IMG/VR virus record: IMGVR_UViG_3300037317_000025
Location: 1 to 64,000 of that record
Source of the DNA: a virus
Reading direction: 5' to 3' (one strand)
Length of the DNA stretch: 64,000 bases
Positions 12,787 through 34,593 of this stretch are shown here, one piece after another (positions within the stretch are counted from its first letter, which is position 1; each line of letters begins with the position of its first letter). The position numbers were made by a program, and so were the translations under genes. The notes under the pieces are model-generated. The model searched no databases. It saw only the letters and a list, made by a program, of their open reading frames with translations, and was not told where the DNA came from.

Positions 12787-12918
12787 TGGTGGAGGCGGCG
12801 GGAGTCGAACCCGCGTCCCGAACGTTGGTGCCCTGGCGGGCTGGAGCGTTTCGCGGCTGGTTCTGTGCGCCTTCCCGCTACCGCGCTCCCCGTCGCCCGG
12901 TCGATACCGAGCGCCCCC
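12787..12918 (-). ncRNA. miniature tmRNA-like RNA (tRNA-like domain only, 132 nt)
   Basis: 5' GGGGGCG-CTC-GGTATCGAC-CGGGCG ... CGTTCGGAC-like GGAC-GCGGG-TTCGACT-CCCGC-CGCCTCC-A-CCA 3'; G3.U70 pair; stemless D-loop with GG..TCGAC, as in ssrA. Confidence 0.75.
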
Positions 12919-16641: not shown

Positions 16642-17505
16642 CTACATCGCTGCGTAATTCGCCTTGACCAGTTCGTCTAGTAAGGTGCTGACTGCGAGTG
16701 CCTCATCGCCAAGACCAGCGTCCTCTAACTGCTGCATATAGGCCAGCAATACCTTTGCAGTGCCGCCCTGCTTCACTTCCATGCTGGGCATTTTGCCGTT
16801 GCGGCGCAACCCGGTTGCGCGCTGCGTGCGCTTGCCCTTGCTCTCCAGTTCCGCCACTTTCTCGCGGCTATAGGCTTCCAGGTCAAACATTGCGGGCTGA
16901 TCCTGGATAGCCTGCAATTCGCCGACCATCGCCCGAAACTTGCGCAGCGGCGGCATTCCGGCGGTATCGTTCAAAATCTTCACCGCCTGAGTCTGATAGT
17001 ATTCCGACAGCCCGGTCATTGCTTCCGCGTGGCCGATAGGCAGCGCGCCGCTCGTAACCATCTTGCGCACGTCGTCAACCAGCGCCAGCAGGCCGACACG
17101 CTTCTGGACATACTCTTTACTCTTGCCCGTCGCTTCTGCAATCTCTGCCGCGCTCATGCCGAAGCGCTCAATACGCTCCTGGTACGCTGCCGCCTCTGCC
17201 ATCGGGTCAAGGTCAACCCGGTTCACGTTCTCAACCAGCATAATGGTGCTGGCCGCTTTGTCGTCCAGTTCCCGCACGATGGCCGGTATCTCTGTCCATC
17301 CGAGCACGTCCCGGCAGGCGCGGGTGCGGCGTTCGCCAGCGACAATCTCCAGACGACCGTCGGGCAGCGGACGGTACGTGGGCGGCTGTGCAAGGCCGTC
17401 GCGCTGAATGCTTGCGGCTAGTTCCTCAAGTTCCTGCTGATCGAATGCCCGACGGTCGTTGTTGCCTGCGATGACCTGTGAGAGTTTGACGTTCGTGATT
17501 TCCAT
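16642..17505 (-). CDS. ParB/Spo0J-like protein
   Basis: LEELAASI..DGLAQP, EIVAGERRTRA, LVENVNRVDLDPMAEA, followed by an HTH. Confidence 0.85.
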   Translation of the reverse strand: MEITNVKLSQVIAGNNDRRAFDQQELEELAASIQRDGLAQPPTYRPLPDGRLEIVAGERRTRACRDVLGWTEIPAIVRELDDKAASTIMLVENVNRVDLDPMAEAAAYQERIERFGMSAAEIAEATGKSKEYVQKRVGLLALVDDVRKMVTSGALPIGHAEAMTGLSEYYQTQAVKILNDTAGMPPLRKFRAMVGELQAIQDQPAMFDLEAYSREKVAELESKGKRTQRATGLRRNGKMPSMEVKQGGTAKVLLAYMQQLEDAGLGDEALAVSTLLDELVKANYAAM

Positions 17506-19796: not shown

Positions 19797-19841
19797 AAGG
19801 TTGTGTGGACCAGCCCGCCGGAGTTGCACCGGCTCTCTCAA

Positions 19842-20498
19842 CTAGCGTTGAGCGTCCTCCTCTAGACCAGGGCTGGATAGTGTGTCCTCGTCCTCGCTCA
19901 AGATTGGCGCAATCGCTTGCGCGTAGTCGAACGGCCTGATTTCTAGCGGTTGCCCGCCGGGGCCGCTGATCTCGTTTCGACTCGGCGCGTCCAGACCCAG
20001 CAACCGGGCGCGGCGCTCCATTGCCTTGATTGCCAGTTCCAGGTAGCGCACGTCGCCGTGCCCCCCGTGGGCAGTCTGCCGCATACGCTGCACGGCCATC
20101 TCGCCCGTGTCGCCGTCGCCTGTCAGGATGCGCTCGTAGTCGGTGCGCCCGTCCTTGCTCGCCTCCCATGCTCGCCACGCTTCGCCCGCCATCTGTTCAA
20201 GCTCCAGTAGTGTTGCGTCGTGCAGTTCGCCAATCGCCTCCTCGCGCTGCTTGCGCCACTCTTTCTTGAGTTCTGTCCAGTAATAATGGACAAGGTTGCG
20301 ATTGATCGGCTCATCGTCGGGGGTGAGGATGTTGTCCCTGAGGAATGCGTCCGTGAGCTGCGAGGCGATCTCTTCCTCGGTGTAGCGTTGCGCTTTGTAG
20401 CGCGCAACATCGCGGCGCAAACGTTCGCGCAGCGCTTTTGGAAATCGGGCTGCGAATTTTGGCACTCTGCCGGACATGTGAGCTTTCTTGCGTTCCAT
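19842..20498 (-). CDS. putative terminase small subunit
   Basis: HTH-like N-terminus; MERRARLLGLDAP..EISGPGGQP C-terminal motif; preceded by the late promoter motif. Confidence 0.55.
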   Translation of the reverse strand: MERKKAHMSGRVPKFAARFPKALRERLRRDVARYKAQRYTEEEIASQLTDAFLRDNILTPDDEPINRNLVHYYWTELKKEWRKQREEAIGELHDATLLELEQMAGEAWRAWEASKDGRTDYERILTGDGDTGEMAVQRMRQTAHGGHGDVRYLELAIKAMERRARLLGLDAPSRNEISGPGGQPLEIRPFDYAQAIAPILSEDEDTLSSPGLEEDAQR

Positions 20499-20510
20499 CG
20501 CTGCGATTAC

Positions 20511-20535
20511 GCCAATATCTACGGGTATTATAGCA
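20511..20535 (-). promoter_or_regulatory. putative late promoter motif, copy 3
   Basis: TGCTATAATACCCGTAGATATTGGC. Confidence 0.65.
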
Positions 20536-20540
20536 TAATG

Positions 20541-20566
20541 AAAAAAAAGACTGCCCGAAAGCAGCC
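20541..20566 (-). terminator. intrinsic terminator ending the CRISPR transcript
   Basis: GGCTGC-TTTCGG-GCAGTC-TTTTTTTT on the minus strand, right after the truncated trailer repeat. Confidence 0.75.
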
Positions 20567-20591
20567 ATTTGTCCTCAACTCAACTCACCTT

Positions 20592-21125
20592 ACCGCGCAT
20601 TGACCATTGCAACGCCAGTGCAGCCCAGGACATCGGCGCTCATCATCCTCTTGCACCCTGCTCAACCGCGCGTTGACCATTGCAACTTAGTCCTGGCGGC
20701 GGGTGGTACAGTTGTACCATTGCCCTTGCACCCTGCTCAACCGCGCATTGACCATTGCAACGTCGGGCTGTGACCTCATAGCGTTGCGTGTACTTGTTCT
20801 TGCACCCTGCTCAACCGCGCATTGACCATTGCAACAACAATGAAGGCGCTGCTGCAGGAGCACGACGAGCTTGCACCCTGCTCAACCGCGCATTGACCGT
20901 TGCAACGTGATGAGTTCCAGTCCTGGCTGATCCTCATTATACTTGCACCCTGCTCAACCGCGCATTGACCATTGCAACTGCTGCTGCTGATATACACAGG
21001 CTTGCCCAGGAAGCTCTTGCACCCTACTCAACCGCGTGTTGACCATTGCAACATATGTTTGACGATTGCAACGATGCTCACAACTCTCCTTGCACCCTGC
21101 TCAACCGCGCATTGACCATTGCAAC
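20592..21125 (-). CRISPR. CRISPR array: 7 full 37-bp repeats + 1 truncated trailer repeat, 7 spacers (34-38 bp)
   Basis: Repeat GTTGCAATGGTCAATGCGCGGTTGAGCAGGGTGCAAG (minus strand) at 21089-21125, 21016-21052, 20942-20978, 20870-20906, 20799-20835, 20725-20761, 20650-20686; 22-bp remnant at 20592-20613; spacers are unique. Confidence 0.97.
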
Positions 21126-22591
21126 TCGTCAAACATATGTAGTTGATACAGAGTCGAGTGTTCAGATGTGTTCTGCACATCAGTCGGGGATGGCACCCCG
21201 CGCTCACTCGTTGAGGCGTGCGCCTCTTCGCAGTTCACAGGCGTACTAGCAGACCGTTCCGCCTCCCTGCGCACGTCACTTGGGGCATTGCCCCGCGCAA
21301 CCTGCCCGTTGCACACGGGTGTCTCTGGATAGTGTTTCGCGTTCGCTCGGTTGCCAATATTCCGAGCGGCGTTGATGTCTCTATCGTGTTCAGTTCCGCA
21401 CTCACCGCACTTCCAGGCGCGGGTGCGAAGCTCAATCTTGCGCGGCGATTTCACCCCGCAGGCGCTACAGGCTTGCGTGGTGTTGGCTGCGTCCACTTCG
21501 TAGTATGCGCGACCTGCCGCTTCGGCCTTCTCTTTGATCTTCTGGCGCAACTTGCCAGGGGCGGCGCTTTGCATCGACTTGTTGAGCGAGCGCTTCAGCT
21601 TGCGCCCCCGGTGCTTGTAGCGCTTGCCATTCTTGCGCTTGGCTTTGGTCATGTGCGCAAAGTTGATGTCCTCGACGCCAATGGTGTCAGCCGTGTCCAC
21701 AATGCGCTTTGCAATGTAGTGCTGCTGGTGATCGCGCTTGCGCGTGGTCTTCTGATGGAGCTTTGCAATACGCGCCCGCCGCCGCTTCGTGCGGTTGCTG
21801 TTCGGATCGGCCTTCTTGCCCGCGCCCCTGGTTTTGCGCTTCGGTGCGACCAGGCGCTCCAGGACACGCTTGCGTTTCTCTAGCTTACGGATGCTATCAT
21901 CCTGGCTATAGGTGCGCCCATCCGACAGCGCGGCGACATCCTGCGTGTCGCCACGGTGCTTGCAGTTCAGGTCAACGCCTACCGTCTTGCCTGTCTCTGG
22001 CAACGGTTCCGGCTCTGGCACCTCGCAGCTAAACGAGATATACCAGTCGTTTTTCACGCGAGTGATATGCACCTGCTTGATAACCGCGTCGTCTGGTATG
22101 GCACGGTGCATGCGCACGCGCAAGTGTCCAAGTTTGCCCGCGCCCGCCAGTTGCCAGTAGGCATAGCGGCGGCTCTCTCCGACAATTCGCGTCCCTCGCT
22201 CGGAGCCGCGAAACGCCAGACCCAAATCAGCAGGCCGCTCCGCCCAGCGCGGATTGCCTGCCGGAAACCGCTTCGCCTTGATGTTGCGAAACATATTTTT
22301 ATAGGCAGTATCAACGCGCCCACTGATGCCAAAGTTGCCGCCCATCGTGTCAGCAGGCACATCGCGCCAGTGGACTATGGTTGCCCGCATGCGCGTGATG
22401 AACTTCCCCTGCGTGCCAGATGTGACCGTCGGCACATACCGCGCCTGCTGTTGCTTCAGCCGGTACGCATCGCGACGCTGCTGGATAAGCACGCGCTGCA
22501 CTTCCCAACACGCCTGCTGCCACGCCTCAAGCGTGCGCTGCTGGTCTGCGTTCGGATAGAGCCGGTATTTGTATGAGCGTGCTATAGTCAT
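21101..22591 (-). CDS. tnpB: CRISPR-associated TnpB-like/compact type V (Cas12-like) RNA-guided nuclease, ~496 aa
   Basis: RSYKYRLYPNADQ N-terminus; RuvC-I VGVDLN, RuvC-II IGVEDIN, Zn ribbon CSAC...CGEC, RuvC-III HDRDINAARNI; stop codon lies inside CRISPR repeat 1. Confidence 0.88.
   Translation of the reverse strand: MTIARSYKYRLYPNADQQRTLEAWQQACWEVQRVLIQQRRDAYRLKQQQARYVPTVTSGTQGKFITRMRATIVHWRDVPADTMGGNFGISGRVDTAYKNMFRNIKAKRFPAGNPRWAERPADLGLAFRGSERGTRIVGESRRYAYWQLAGAGKLGHLRVRMHRAIPDDAVIKQVHITRVKNDWYISFSCEVPEPEPLPETGKTVGVDLNCKHRGDTQDVAALSDGRTYSQDDSIRKLEKRKRVLERLVAPKRKTRGAGKKADPNSNRTKRRRARIAKLHQKTTRKRDHQQHYIAKRIVDTADTIGVEDINFAHMTKAKRKNGKRYKHRGRKLKRSLNKSMQSAAPGKLRQKIKEKAEAAGRAYYEVDAANTTQACSACGVKSPRKIELRTRAWKCGECGTEHDRDINAARNIGNRANAKHYPETPVCNGQVARGNAPSDVRREAERSASTPVNCEEAHASTSERGVPSPTDVQNTSEHSTLYQLHMFDELQWSMRG
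21126..21340 (-). ncRNA. putative omega/tracr-like scaffold RNA overlapping the effector's 3' coding tail
   Basis: Several hairpins; partial anti-repeat GCACGCCTCAAC (21221-21210); repeat-3'-like TGAGCGCGGGGTGCCA (21206-21191); boundaries uncertain. Confidence 0.5.
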
Positions 22592-22597
22592 ATAATG

Positions 22598-22636
22598 ATT
22601 ATAGCACATTGCACACATAGTTGCAAGTGCTATAAT
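22598..22636. promoter_or_regulatory. overlapping divergent sigma70 promoters forming an imperfect palindrome
   Basis: Minus: TTGCAA-17-TATAAT, 6 nt before ATG 22591; plus: TTGCAC-16-TATAAT; ATTATAGCAC...GTGCTATAAT inverted arms. Confidence 0.75.
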
Positions 22637-22672
22637 AGGGATAGCACAAACAAGATACAAGGTGAGGTTGAC

Positions 22673-22900
22673 ATGGTAAGATGGGCACTCAAGGAGATCG
22701 CAGAGCCGGAGCGCTGGTCGGCGCGGCGGTTGGCAAAAGAGTCGGGGTTGTCGTATAGTGCAGTGTATTACATCTGGGCGAATAAAACGCGCCGGGTGGA
22801 TTTCGATACGCTTGAGAAGCTCTGCCGAATACTCAAGGTCGGGCCGGGTGATTTGATTGTCTGCGACGAACCACAAAACACCACAACTCCGCATCCCTAG
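22673..22900 (+). CDS. Cro/C1-type HTH transcriptional regulator
   Basis: SARRLAKESGLSYSAVYYIWANKTRRVDFDTLEKLCRIL..GDLI; GAGGT RBS. Confidence 0.85.
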   Translation: MVRWALKEIAEPERWSARRLAKESGLSYSAVYYIWANKTRRVDFDTLEKLCRILKVGPGDLIVCDEPQNTTTPHP

Positions 22901-24113
22901 ACTGCGCCCGGATCAATCGGCCATCGCCCGCCACCCGGCGAAGCGACAAATCGTGGCGATGGGGCGGCGCTGGGGCAAGACCGTGCTGGGCGGGGCGCTG
23001 GCGCTGGCGTGCGCGGCGAACGGCGCAAAGGTTGCATGGGTTGCGCCGACCTACAAGAACAGCAGGCCGTTGTGGCGATATTGCGAACAATCAGTCGCCC
23101 ACCTGAAACGCACACCCTATGTCGAGGTCAACAAGTCCGAGCGAACCGTCACCTTCCCGCAGACCAATGGCAGCATCGCTATCTACAGTGCAGACAATGC
23201 CGATTCGGCTCGCGGCGAGTCGTTCGATCTGGTCGTCATCGACGAAGCCAGCAGGATTAGCGAGGATGCCTACCAGGCCGTCTTTGAGCCAACCGTGGCC
23301 GACCGCGACGGGATAATCCTGCTCATCAGCACACCGCTTGGCCGCAATTATTTTTGGAAACTCTGGCAACAAGGCCAACTCGCGGAGAACCACCACCGTA
23401 TCAAATCCTGGCAGGCTCCGAGCAACGCTAACCCGATGCCAGGTATTCAGCGGGCATTCCATCTGGCGAAGGAACACACGCCGGAACGCACGTTCTTGCA
23501 GGAATGGATGGCGCAATTTCTGGACGAGGCCGGGGTGTTTCGCTTTGTCTACGACCGCGCCATCGCCGCGCCGCTTGCCCAGGGCGAGGAGGGGCGCACG
23601 TATGTCTACGGCTGCGACTGGGCGGGCAACAGCGGACAGGGCGACTTCACCGCCTTTGCCGTGATGGACGCGGAACGCAAGACACTGGTGCATCTCGACA
23701 GGTTCCACGGCACGAGCTACGAACAGCAGATGAACCGCCTGCTGGGGCTGGCGCAGCGCTTCCCGCCGACGGCGATTGTGGCCGAGGTGAACTCGATGGG
23801 CGGGCCGGTGTTCGAGCAACTGGTCAACGCAGAACTGCCGATGGTGCCGTGGGTCGCCAGCAACGCCACCAAGAAGGTCGGTGTTGAGGCGCTGCAACTG
23901 GCACTGGAGCAGGGCACGATCACGCTGCTGAATGAGCCGACGCTTGTCCACGAGATGACCGCGTATGAAGCCAGCAGCACGGCGAGCGGACTGGTGCGCT
24001 ATTCTGCGCCGGAGGGCGATCACGATGACTGCGTGATGGCGGTGATGATGGCGTGGCTGGGCTGCCTGAACAGTGGGCCGATGCTGCTGAGTGAGGGCGC
24101 GGGGCGGTATTAG
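22857..24113 (+). CDS. terL: terminase large subunit
   Basis: Walker A GRRWGKT, Walker B LVVIDEA, ISTP, nuclease YGCDW...GDHDDCVMA; TTG start uncertain. Confidence 0.9.
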   Translation: MSATNHKTPQLRIPRLRPDQSAIARHPAKRQIVAMGRRWGKTVLGGALALACAANGAKVAWVAPTYKNSRPLWRYCEQSVAHLKRTPYVEVNKSERTVTFPQTNGSIAIYSADNADSARGESFDLVVIDEASRISEDAYQAVFEPTVADRDGIILLISTPLGRNYFWKLWQQGQLAENHHRIKSWQAPSNANPMPGIQRAFHLAKEHTPERTFLQEWMAQFLDEAGVFRFVYDRAIAAPLAQGEEGRTYVYGCDWAGNSGQGDFTAFAVMDAERKTLVHLDRFHGTSYEQQMNRLLGLAQRFPPTAIVAEVNSMGGPVFEQLVNAELPMVPWVASNATKKVGVEALQLALEQGTITLLNEPTLVHEMTAYEASSTASGLVRYSAPEGDHDDCVMAVMMAWLGCLNSGPMLLSEGAGRY

Positions 24114-31881: not shown

Positions 31882-32889
31882 CTAAAACGGCGGGTTCAGG
31901 TCGTCGCCGTCCGCGCCCACCGCCACCGGCTCGTTCCTGGCCTGCTTGCGCTCGCGGATTTTCTGGAAGTCCACGCCCTGCCCGCCAACCATCTCGCGCA
32001 GCTTCTCGGTGGGCACGTTGTCGAATGCATCGCGCTTCACCCGCTTGCGCTCGCAGAGCACGGTGATCAAGTCCTCGCGCTCATGATCCATCTCTGGCGG
32101 TTCCATCGGCGCGTCATCATCCTCTTCCGGCCCGTCGTAGCTGGCCCCGTCCAGTATCTCGCCTGTGTCCTCGTCCACCACGGGCTGCGCGGCGTGGGCG
32201 GCATTGCTGCGCTGGCGCTCGGTGAATACCCACCGCGTTGCCTGGCCGGGTTGCAGGCGGACGTTGAGGATGCCCTTCTCTGCCTTGCGCTTCTTGCCCT
32301 GGTTGTCGGTGGTTGTCACTTCTTCCAGGGTGCGATACAACTCAAGCGGCATATAGCTCAGGTCGCTGCGCACCAGATACAGGGCGTTCAACTGCTCGTC
32401 GAGCCGCAGCGCGTCGTACAGGCTGGTGCTATGCACGACCACCAGTCCGAACACTTCCAGGTCGGTCACGAACACGCCCAGGCGAGTGGTGTTCTTACAC
32501 TGGCACCCACCGTTACCGCCCCTGTCACACGGTTTCGGTTCATAGCTGTAGGCGGGTGGGGCGCTCTTCTCGATCAGGTGCTTGACTTGCTGCTCGCCGT
32601 CGCACCGGCGCAACAGTAACCCGCCCTGTGCAGTCGAGCGCCATTCCTCCAGATAGGGGTCGAAGTTCTGCCGCACCTCCGGGTAGGGCAGCGACACGCG
32701 AATGTAGTTTGGCTTGTCGCCGTAGAGTTCGTAGAACCGCTCAACCAGCGCGGGATCGTCGCTGTCGAAGCGGAAGTGGTCATCCAGGTCTTTGCCGAAC
32801 TTGCCGTTCAGTTTCTCGCTGCCCTTGCGCAGATGCCCGATAGTCGGGATGCGCACGCGGTTGCGGTCGGTAATTCCTTTAATCGGCAT
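31882..32889 (-). CDS. Gp3-like recombination protein
   Basis: MPIKGI...IGHLRKG..DLDDHFRF...RRCDGE...C.C...RL; acidic C-terminal tail. Confidence 0.55.
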   Translation of the reverse strand: MPIKGITDRNRVRIPTIGHLRKGSEKLNGKFGKDLDDHFRFDSDDPALVERFYELYGDKPNYIRVSLPYPEVRQNFDPYLEEWRSTAQGGLLLRRCDGEQQVKHLIEKSAPPAYSYEPKPCDRGGNGGCQCKNTTRLGVFVTDLEVFGLVVVHSTSLYDALRLDEQLNALYLVRSDLSYMPLELYRTLEEVTTTDNQGKKRKAEKGILNVRLQPGQATRWVFTERQRSNAAHAAQPVVDEDTGEILDGASYDGPEEDDDAPMEPPEMDHEREDLITVLCERKRVKRDAFDNVPTEKLREMVGGQGVDFQKIRERKQARNEPVAVGADGDDLNPPF

Positions 32890-34417: not shown

Positions 34418-34593
34418 CTTTTTTCGATCCATACTCTTGCCCTGTCTCACTGCGCCCGGATAGACACGAATATCTTGGCATTATACCACCTGAAACCCGC
34501 CAGGTTCTACGCGCCAGATAGCAGGCCATGGGCGTTGTATGCCTTCTGCAAGGCGTAGAACCTGGCGGAAAATTGATAGAAAGGCGAATATAC

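Follow-up and report, generated by a model that had tools for sequence, protein, structure and literature searches.

The first spacer of a phage CRISPR array is probably derived from a sibling allele of the adjoining effector gene

Introduction

The CRISPR mini-arrays borne by the portogloboviruses SPV1 and SPV2 carry spacers that match array-adjacent regions of close relatives, and the orthologous locus of the carrier is mutated or deleted (Medvedeva et al., 2019; PMC6858448). In the Cas12r system of Thermus Lalka phages, the spacers match integrative elements that compete for attachment sites (bioRxiv 10.64898/2026.04.20.719267). Cas12n (type V-N, formerly V-U4) is a miniature TnpB-like effector with a 5′-AAN protospacer adjacent motif (PAM), and the DNA coding for its tail has been proposed to overlap the trans-activating CRISPR RNA (tracrRNA; PMC12216341). 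The locus considered here lies in a window of 64,000 nucleotides, by which we mean the whole stretch of DNA that was analysed, positions 1 to 64,000 of the IMG/VR virus record IMGVR_UViG_3300037317_000025. It comprises a TnpB-derived, Cas12n-like effector gene joined to an array of eight 37-nt repeats and seven spacers of 34–38 nt.

Part of the first spacer of this array is an inverted copy of the junction between the array's own leader and repeat 1. The original prediction offered two accounts of this arrangement, namely that the first repeat–spacer unit is a structural or regulatory element, or that it was acquired from a sibling CRISPR locus with the same leader and a different repeat. Pairing between leader and array has a precedent in type II-A systems, where Liao and colleagues reportedly described, in 2022, a conserved stem-loop between leader RNA and first repeat that prioritises the newest spacer. 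For the present locus, we conclude that the 36 nt of spacer 1 were probably copied, in antisense, from the 3′ end of the coding sequence of a sibling effector allele, and that the inverted repeat is the footprint of that origin. Judged from its sequence, the array includes spacers aimed at rival alleles of the cassette to which it belongs, and these alleles co-occur with it in the same samples.

Results

The inverted repeat at the leader end of the array

The inverted repeat involves the following features; P0122 and P0157 are metagenomic relatives of the effector protein.

21101–22591, minus strand: TnpB-derived, Cas12n-like effector gene, 496 amino acids, starting MTIARSYKYRLYP, assigned from its translation and profile matches; the stop codon (21103–21101) falls within repeat 1
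21126–21140, minus strand: leader arm of the inverted repeat, coding for H-M-F-D-E of the effector's C-terminal QLHMFDE motif, with the same residues in P0122 and P0157
21089–21125, minus strand: repeat 1, of consensus sequence
21053–21088, minus strand: spacer 1, 36 nt, probably antisense to the 3′ end of the coding sequence of a sibling effector allele; the 13 nt at the spacer's 3′ end are the reverse complement of the own leader
21016–21052, minus strand: repeat 2, differing from the consensus at three positions; the 15-bp arm is completed by its initial GT

The arms lie where the original prediction placed them, at 21051–21065 and 21126–21140, and are complementary at 15 of 15 positions with 60 nt between them; a BLAST comparison of the genome with itself aligns 21051–21071 with 21119–21140 at 95%. 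Thirteen of the 15 bp fall in spacer 1 and the remaining two are the GT that opens repeat 2. The 6-bp extension after a 1-nt bulge is TTGCAA, the palindrome with which every repeat begins, and ACATATGT is itself palindromic. A set of 200 first-order Markov versions of the window gave a mean of 0.015 perfect 15-bp inverted repeats per 64 kb when the loop was limited to 100 nt, and the window itself holds two such loci. Other inverted repeats not expected by chance were seen at 34497–34512/34553–34568 (16 bp, 40-nt loop) and at 17353–17366/17446–17459 (14 bp, 79-nt loop).

Folding of the minus-strand RNA bears out the proposal that leader and spacer 1 could form a stem around repeat 1 and the effector stop codon. 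The predicted stem consists of 15 bp, a bulged G and 7 further pairs, is present in both the minimum-free-energy and the centroid structures (z about −3.2), and holds repeat 1 and the stop codon in its loop. The repeat at 21016–21052 had also been singled out correctly as the most divergent full repeat, as no other full repeat departs from the consensus at as many as three positions. The leader arm, for its part, codes for H-M-F-D-E in a C-terminal motif that is found throughout the clade, and is therefore constrained by coding.

Two smaller symmetries occur at the same junction. A local hairpin around GTTGCAA (21119–21146) can form between the 7 nt at the end of the leader (TTGACGA) and nt 8–14 of repeat 1 (TGGTCAA), and the start of the repeat is almost the reverse complement of the leader–repeat junction.

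Source of the first spacer

Sibling alleles were sought with the C-terminal 139 residues of the effector as the query. P0122, a 176-residue fragment, is 96% identical to the effector over 149 residues. It tracks the effector through ...EHSTLYQLHMFD, then continues GCNDARNSPAKSNKKRVAKKSRTNQRL and ends ...EHSTLYQLHMFDGCNDARNSPAKSNKKRVAKKSRTNQRL. The C-terminus of P0157, a member of the 90% cluster to which P0122 belongs, reads ...HMLDDCNDQRAIE. Past ...LYQLHM(F/L)D, the sibling proteins read GCNDARNSP... and DCND... exactly where the allele in the window has repeat 1, and the junction between the alleles falls at a shared TTGCAA. The tail of P0122 adds 27 further codons that include an RNSxxxxxKKRV motif, which recurs in P0002, P0003, P0013 and P0017. 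The sibling therefore has the fuller C-terminus, in place of which the present allele has repeat 1.

This sibling-specific continuation can be read, in antisense, from spacer 1. Frame 2 of the plus strand at 21050–21094 gives HMFDDCNDAHNSPC, and spacer 1 with its flanks corresponds to HMFDDCNDAHNSP, compared with HMFDGCNDARNSP at the homologous position of P0122. Against the proteins of the clade, spacer 1 attains 9 identities, a value that none of 300 random 36-mers from the window reached. The sibling-specific part of the spacer was absent from the viral contigs searched.

The proposed protospacer would straddle the homology breakpoint between the sibling allele and the own allele, which would explain why the own leader, that is, the end of the effector gene, reappears as its reverse complement in the last 13 nt of the spacer. 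Two coincidences would lengthen the match: the AC that flanks the protospacer in the sibling equals the end of the repeat, and the repeat start GTTGCAA is similar to the sibling codons TGC AAC. The promoter and terminator described below indicate that the array would be read on the minus strand; in that case, the PAM-proximal 23 nt of spacer 1 would be specific to the sibling and the self-matching 13 nt would be distal, so that the phage would not cut itself. On that reading of the array, the earlier judgement that self-cleavage is unlikely holds. The stem between leader and spacer 1 in the precursor RNA would then be incidental rather than a purpose-built RNA element.

Contigs from tidal-flat metagenomes

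Logan contigs from four tidal-flat metagenome runs (X1 to X4, of which X1 is probably the source sample) were placed on positions 19800–23000. Contigs of X1 reproduce 20950–21117 and 21097–22522 without differences. No single Logan contig covers spacer 1, repeat 1 and leader together, because repeat 1 is longer than the assembler's word.

The sibling gene end is represented in X4, where a contig of depth 2.9 joins 21052 to 21140 on opposite strands, with 14 shared letters and 38 on the short side. The X4 piece of the same depth starts at 21140, runs upward and carries TTCACC at 21164–69. On the gene strand these letters are GGTGAA (G-E), giving the NGEE of P0122 and P0157 as opposed to the NTSE of the own allele. 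The X4 bin 20977–21083 has a depth of 0.87, which equals 2.9 × 32/107 and corresponds to cover limited to 21052–21083; spacer 2, repeat 2 and repeats 3 and 4 have little or no cover. Taken together, the depth arithmetic and the sibling letters mean that spacer-1 sequence occurs in X4 only in inverted orientation, joined to the end of the sibling gene. An inversion or foldback of the own array was considered as the source of the joint and is rejected on the same arithmetic and the same sibling-specific letters. The X4 contig thus probably carries the full-length 36-nt protospacer at the sibling's gene end, in inverted orientation.

The X4 contig, P0122 and P0157 uphold the part of the second original account in which the unit came from a sibling sharing the leader. 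What changes is the nature of the source, which is an effector allele, the continuation in P0122 being coding sequence. The spacer itself is not fixed across homologous arrays: a 460-nt contig of the NGEE type in X3 aligns through repeat 1 and then continues with 19 nt unlike spacer 1, and in X2 the first unit appears to be missing from a contig of depth 23, in which 21051 is joined to 21126.

A second spacer against a sibling allele

Spacer 5 also matches the effector of a rival. Its translation, NKYTQRYEVTAR, agrees with P0015 and P0023 at 12 of 12 residues and with P0012 and P0018 at 11 of 12, and the target residues lie in an insertion that is absent from the own effector allele. In X1 to X4, the spacer-5 sequence is found in another context, with loose ends at 20756 and 20798 and a translation that continues into NEVWRAVPA of P0015. 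Two joints, 20798 to 22494 and 21983 to 20756, put this sequence inside a sibling effector gene. That sibling shares 22494–22611 with the own locus and has the promoter and the first 42 residues in common with it. The loose end at 22494 reads WCIKQRR, as in P0012.

The position 22494 is a sharp mosaic breakpoint, as alleles of the P0012 type drop to about 45% identity after residue 42. Contig depth over 22475–22581 is about 10 times that of the gene body.

The array is adjacent to the effector gene and has unique spacers, two of which (1 and 5) match foreign DNA. Its remaining units are as follows.

20979–21015, minus strand: spacer 2, with a weak, non-significant resemblance to an allele of the P0002/P0003 type (7 of 12 identities, run of 6, p about 0.03 before correction)
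20942–20978, minus strand: repeat 3
20907–20941, minus strand: spacer 3, no target found
20870–20906, minus strand: repeat 4 (one change)
20836–20869, minus strand: spacer 4, resembling sibling alleles at the protein level, not beyond chance
20799–20835, minus strand: repeat 5
20762–20798, minus strand: spacer 5, with a match to a second sibling effector allele, of the P0015/P0023 type, on its coding strand
20725–20761, minus strand: repeat 6
20687–20724, minus strand: spacer 6, no target found
20650–20686, minus strand: repeat 7 (one change)
20614–20649, minus strand: spacer 7, no target found
20577–20613, minus strand: repeat 8, terminal, with a degenerate distal half

The segment 20631–20652, which spans the final 3 nt of repeat 7 and the 5′ part of spacer 7, resembles 32104–32126 of the same genome at 22 of 23 positions with a one-base gap; this is either chance or the relic of a target in the homologous gene of a relative. 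The array repeat was absent from the viral contigs and genome contigs searched, and comparison of the array with GenBank phages gave chance-level matches only (E 0.6).

The cassette and the direction of the array

The window forms part of a 75,346-bp record with a CheckV completeness of 71%. Around the locus are phage genes for the large terminase (TerL, 22857–24113), a ParB-like protein, an endolysin-like protein and a methyltransferase. The record contains neither Cas1 nor a second CRISPR array, so that this is an array on a virus genome without adaptation genes. The features that delimit the locus are listed here.

22598–22626, minus strand: promoter-like site of the effector–array operon, just upstream of the ATG at 22591 (TTGCAA, 17 nt, TG-TATAAT; 10 of 12 consensus matches, extended −10)
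22595–22900, plus strand: Cro/C1-type helix–turn–helix (HTH) gene (Pfam HTH_26, E 1e-13) that belongs to the variable cassette; the joints of cassette-less relatives end at 22880
20549–20566, minus strand: intrinsic terminator, end of the effector–array transcript (GGCTGCTTTCGGGCAGTC followed by T8)

The minus strand carries both the promoter and the terminator, and a search ahead of repeat 8, at the far end of the array, gave no promoter on the plus strand. These features indicate that the array would be read on the minus strand in one operon with the effector. The ends of the repeat are nearly symmetrical, and the repeat sequence alone therefore does not fix the orientation.

The HTH gene is divergent from the effector promoter, and its product is probably the regulator of the cassette. 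We describe the locus as a phage cassette composed of this HTH regulator, the divergent promoter, the TnpB-derived Cas12n-like effector, the eight-repeat array and the terminator, and the cassette is variable among relatives. One X1 contig joins 20477 to 22880 at a depth of about 39, the same as that of the cassette-bearing form, and one X4 contig joins 20535 to 22880 with 22 other letters between. From these direct joints it follows that some relatives are without the whole cassette (20478–22879).

Elsewhere in the window, 12787–12918 on the minus strand matches the Rfam model for transfer-messenger RNA (tmRNA) at 56.9 bits, above the gathering score. Model positions 1–374 are covered in only 132 nt, which would make this a very short tmRNA-like gene in a phage.

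The effector and its clade

The effector matches the NCBIfam model guided_TnpB above its cutoff (3.3e-60) and the model c2c8 (V-U2) below it (3.4e-32; 112 bits against a cutoff of 350), and it also matches OrfB_IS605 and Cas12f1-like_TNB of Pfam. The best solved CRISPR effector for this protein is RdCas12n (PDB 9J09, E 1.8e-25), over residues 261–519 only, and TnpB structures score as well as 9J09. The protein has the core expected of TnpB and Cas12 enzymes: in an alignment of the clade, the RuvC D-E-D triad (D207, E307 and D405) and the CCCC zinc finger (C375, C378, C395 and C398) are invariant or nearly so.

The clade consists of about 27 metagenomic relatives at 37–55% identity. Close relatives were not found in viral scans with the effector, P0012 or TerL as query, nor was any relative found in a scan of genome contigs with P0016. 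A metagenome scan returned only generic TnpBs, at 32% identity or less. The clade alignment as query yielded only the locus L090, at 37–39% identity. This IMG/VR phage locus, the only one within the clade that was fetched, has an open reading frame that ends ...QMSFFDHV, followed 16 nt later by a three-repeat array. Its leader and spacers show no complementarity, and its spacers gave no match to proteins of the clade.

The C-terminus of the effector clade is conserved as QLxLF(D/E) or QLSLDL; it reads LYQLHMFDE here (21126–21155, minus strand) and QLSLFDD, QLELFE or QLSLDL in relatives. In sequence, this peptide looks like the motif by which bacterial proteins bind the beta sliding clamp. Transposases of insertion sequences bind the beta sliding clamp (PMC3971601, PMC4549789); our literature search did not find clamp binding reported for TnpB or Cas12.

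A tracrRNA was sought as an anti-repeat in the tail of the effector gene. The best duplex between repeat and tail lies at −121 and is not significant, as 18 of 100 shuffled repeats equal it; for L090 the best duplex, at −122, is likewise not significant (6 of 100 shuffles). The array of L090 (L090:5568–5786) has two or three spacers and a repeat ending ATTGAAAG, as do many type I and type III repeats, and its gene tail holds a candidate anti-repeat, CGATCACATACATC (L090:5446–5475), which lies some 122 nt upstream of repeat 1. This distance is also that of the best, non-significant duplex in the window.

Discussion

Weighing the origin of the first spacer

Several points weigh against a sibling origin of the spacers or its simplest form. 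A sibling target is demonstrated for only two of the seven spacers. The full-length match of spacer 1 rests on contig-placement tables and on proteins that differ from the spacer translation at 2 of 13 residues, and the X4 contig has a depth of only 2.9. A stable stem of 21–22 bp is predicted, and a secondary effect of this modelled structure on processing may exist. Repeat 1 has the consensus sequence and repeat 2 carries three changes, which an integration at the leader end that duplicates the first repeat would not yield; this difference suggests that recombination between arrays, rather than a single simple integration, may have taken place.

The flanks of the two protospacers also belong here. 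In the gene-sense orientation there is no obvious 5′ PAM common to both, so that activity and the orientation of the array are presumptive. On the 5′ side, the protospacer of spacer 5 is flanked by ...TATCCT and that of spacer 1 by ...NGCNG; in the other orientation the flanks are CCAC and CTAC, respectively. Nor is the 5′-AAN PAM of Cas12n seen at these two protospacers, a weak comparison with n = 2. On the side of the next repeat, both protospacers continue with GTNG (GTAG for spacer 1, 21051–21052; GTGG for spacer 5, 20756–20761), although these are two cases only. GTNG resembles the repeat start GTTG, which on the plus strand sets CYAC against the repeat end CAAC. The GTNG flank may be the footprint of acquisition or of a PAM, or a pointer to the other array orientation.

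The alternative that survives best, although we regard it as improbable, is the first of the two original accounts, in which the first unit is a selected RNA element whose stem would insulate the mRNA from the array, offer a double-stranded site for cleavage, by RNase III for instance, or tune the processing of the first CRISPR RNA (crRNA1). The stem of 15 bp, bulge and 6–7 bp dominates both predicted folds, and its length of about 21–22 bp is near that of a minimal RNase III substrate. The self-match moreover occupies the 3′ end of the spacer, which is normally trimmed from type V guides. Against a dedicated structural or regulatory unit stands its lack of conservation: X3 has another spacer, X2 apparently has no first unit, and L090 has no such pairing. 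The sequence of the unit is also wholly explained by the sibling protospacer, and the leader arm is under coding constraint (QLHMFDE), so it did not evolve to pair.

A regulatory role of another kind, autoregulation by partial self-targeting, we consider very unlikely. A plus-strand crRNA1 would have a 13-nt seed match to the own gene end beside CTAC, and binding without cutting would damp expression. This would accord with the CYAC found on that side of both known protospacers (CTAC and CCAC), compared with CAAC at the repeat end, and the near symmetry of the repeat ends leaves room for it. However, the minus strand bears the promoter, at 22626 to 22598, as well as the terminator, at 20566 to 20549, no plus-strand promoter precedes repeat 8, and the degenerate repeat is distal on the minus strand. 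The PAM inference draws on two protospacers, and the site is at the 3′ end of the gene rather than at a promoter. More generally, we found neither a conserved leader–array pairing nor a match at a cas promoter or 5′ untranslated region: the alleles vary, L090 is without the pairing, and the match falls at the gene's 3′ end, away from the promoter.

Slightly less credible still is a rearrangement in which the joining of array and gene at a GTTGCAA microhomology left an inverted piece of the phage's ancestral gene tail enclosed by repeats. The array does begin exactly where the siblings continue, at the shared TTGCAA, and the difference between repeats 1 and 2 is not predicted by simple integration. 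Yet the fragment, at 36 nt, is within the 34–38 nt range of the spacers and is precisely bounded by full repeats, and spacer 5 shows that the array holds ordinary sibling-derived spacers. Least credible of all is that assembly produced the arrangement, or that the end of the array was locally inverted or folded back. No Logan contig spans spacer 1, repeat 1 and leader, and the opposite-strand joint in X4 is at a repeat. However, the X1 contigs match both sides without differences, the sibling letters (TTCACC, NGEE) and the near absence of cover of spacer 2 and repeats 2–4 in X4 mark another allele, and independent JGI proteins show the sibling gene end.

Rival alleles and a possible homing function

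With spacers derived from siblings as the preferred reading, the array and its effector would be active, cutting or blocking co-infecting rivals. A doubtful but possible extension, drawn by analogy, is that the cassette is an RNA-guided homing or allele-replacement element among co-infecting phages, the nuclease of which cuts rival alleles at allele-specific sites. The shared flanks, comprising the promoter and the first approximately 100 nt of the gene on one side and the downstream gene on the other, would serve as homology arms, and repair would convert the rival locus, much as in TnpB-assisted transposon retention and the homing endonucleases of T-even phages. Frequent recombination at this site fits with the breakpoint at 22494, with the depth of the shared 5′ segment, which is higher by roughly 10-fold, and with the presence or absence of the cassette.

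An odd-looking RNA structure becomes, in the account given here, a readable record of conflict between phages. It also carries a caution, as self-complementarity between spacer and leader can arise simply from spacers taken at homologous loci. The two natural protospacers, with their flanks, offer concrete targets for establishing the activity and PAM of an uncharacterised clade of compact Cas12-like proteins.

Comparison with known systems

The predicted pairing of leader RNA with array RNA near repeat 1 recalls the type II-A leader stem-loop. The type II-A pairing is conserved and joins leader to repeat, whereas the partner of the leader here is a spacer and the pairing varies between alleles.

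As to the effector, RdCas12n (9J09) shares the RuvC domain, the CCCC zinc finger and a disordered C-terminal tail. It differs in that the similarity extends over the C-terminal half only, the tracrRNA here is only a candidate, and the carrier here is a phage. TranC (LaTranC, PDB 9JFQ) likewise has a TnpB-sized effector joined directly to an array, with a gene tail that likely encodes the scaffold RNA, but its sequence similarity is weak (E about 1e-9). Cas12r shares with the present system a phage-borne compact Cas12 gene and an array with spacers against competing mobile elements; the demonstrated targets here are instead sibling alleles of the same cassette.

The closest parallel is with the SPV1 and SPV2 arrays. 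In both cases the array is on a viral genome without adaptation genes, the targets lie beside the array locus in relatives from the same population, and the locus of the carrier is altered so that it does not target itself. Spacers 1 and 5 conform to this pattern, as both target relatives near the array locus at positions where the own sequence differs. The portoglobovirus arrays have one or two spacers and borrow the effector of the host, whereas the array described here has seven and its own TnpB-derived effector, which extends the published pattern of virus-borne arrays to a virus that brings its own miniature effector. Unlike in SPV1 and SPV2, the targeted neighbour is the effector gene of the rival itself.

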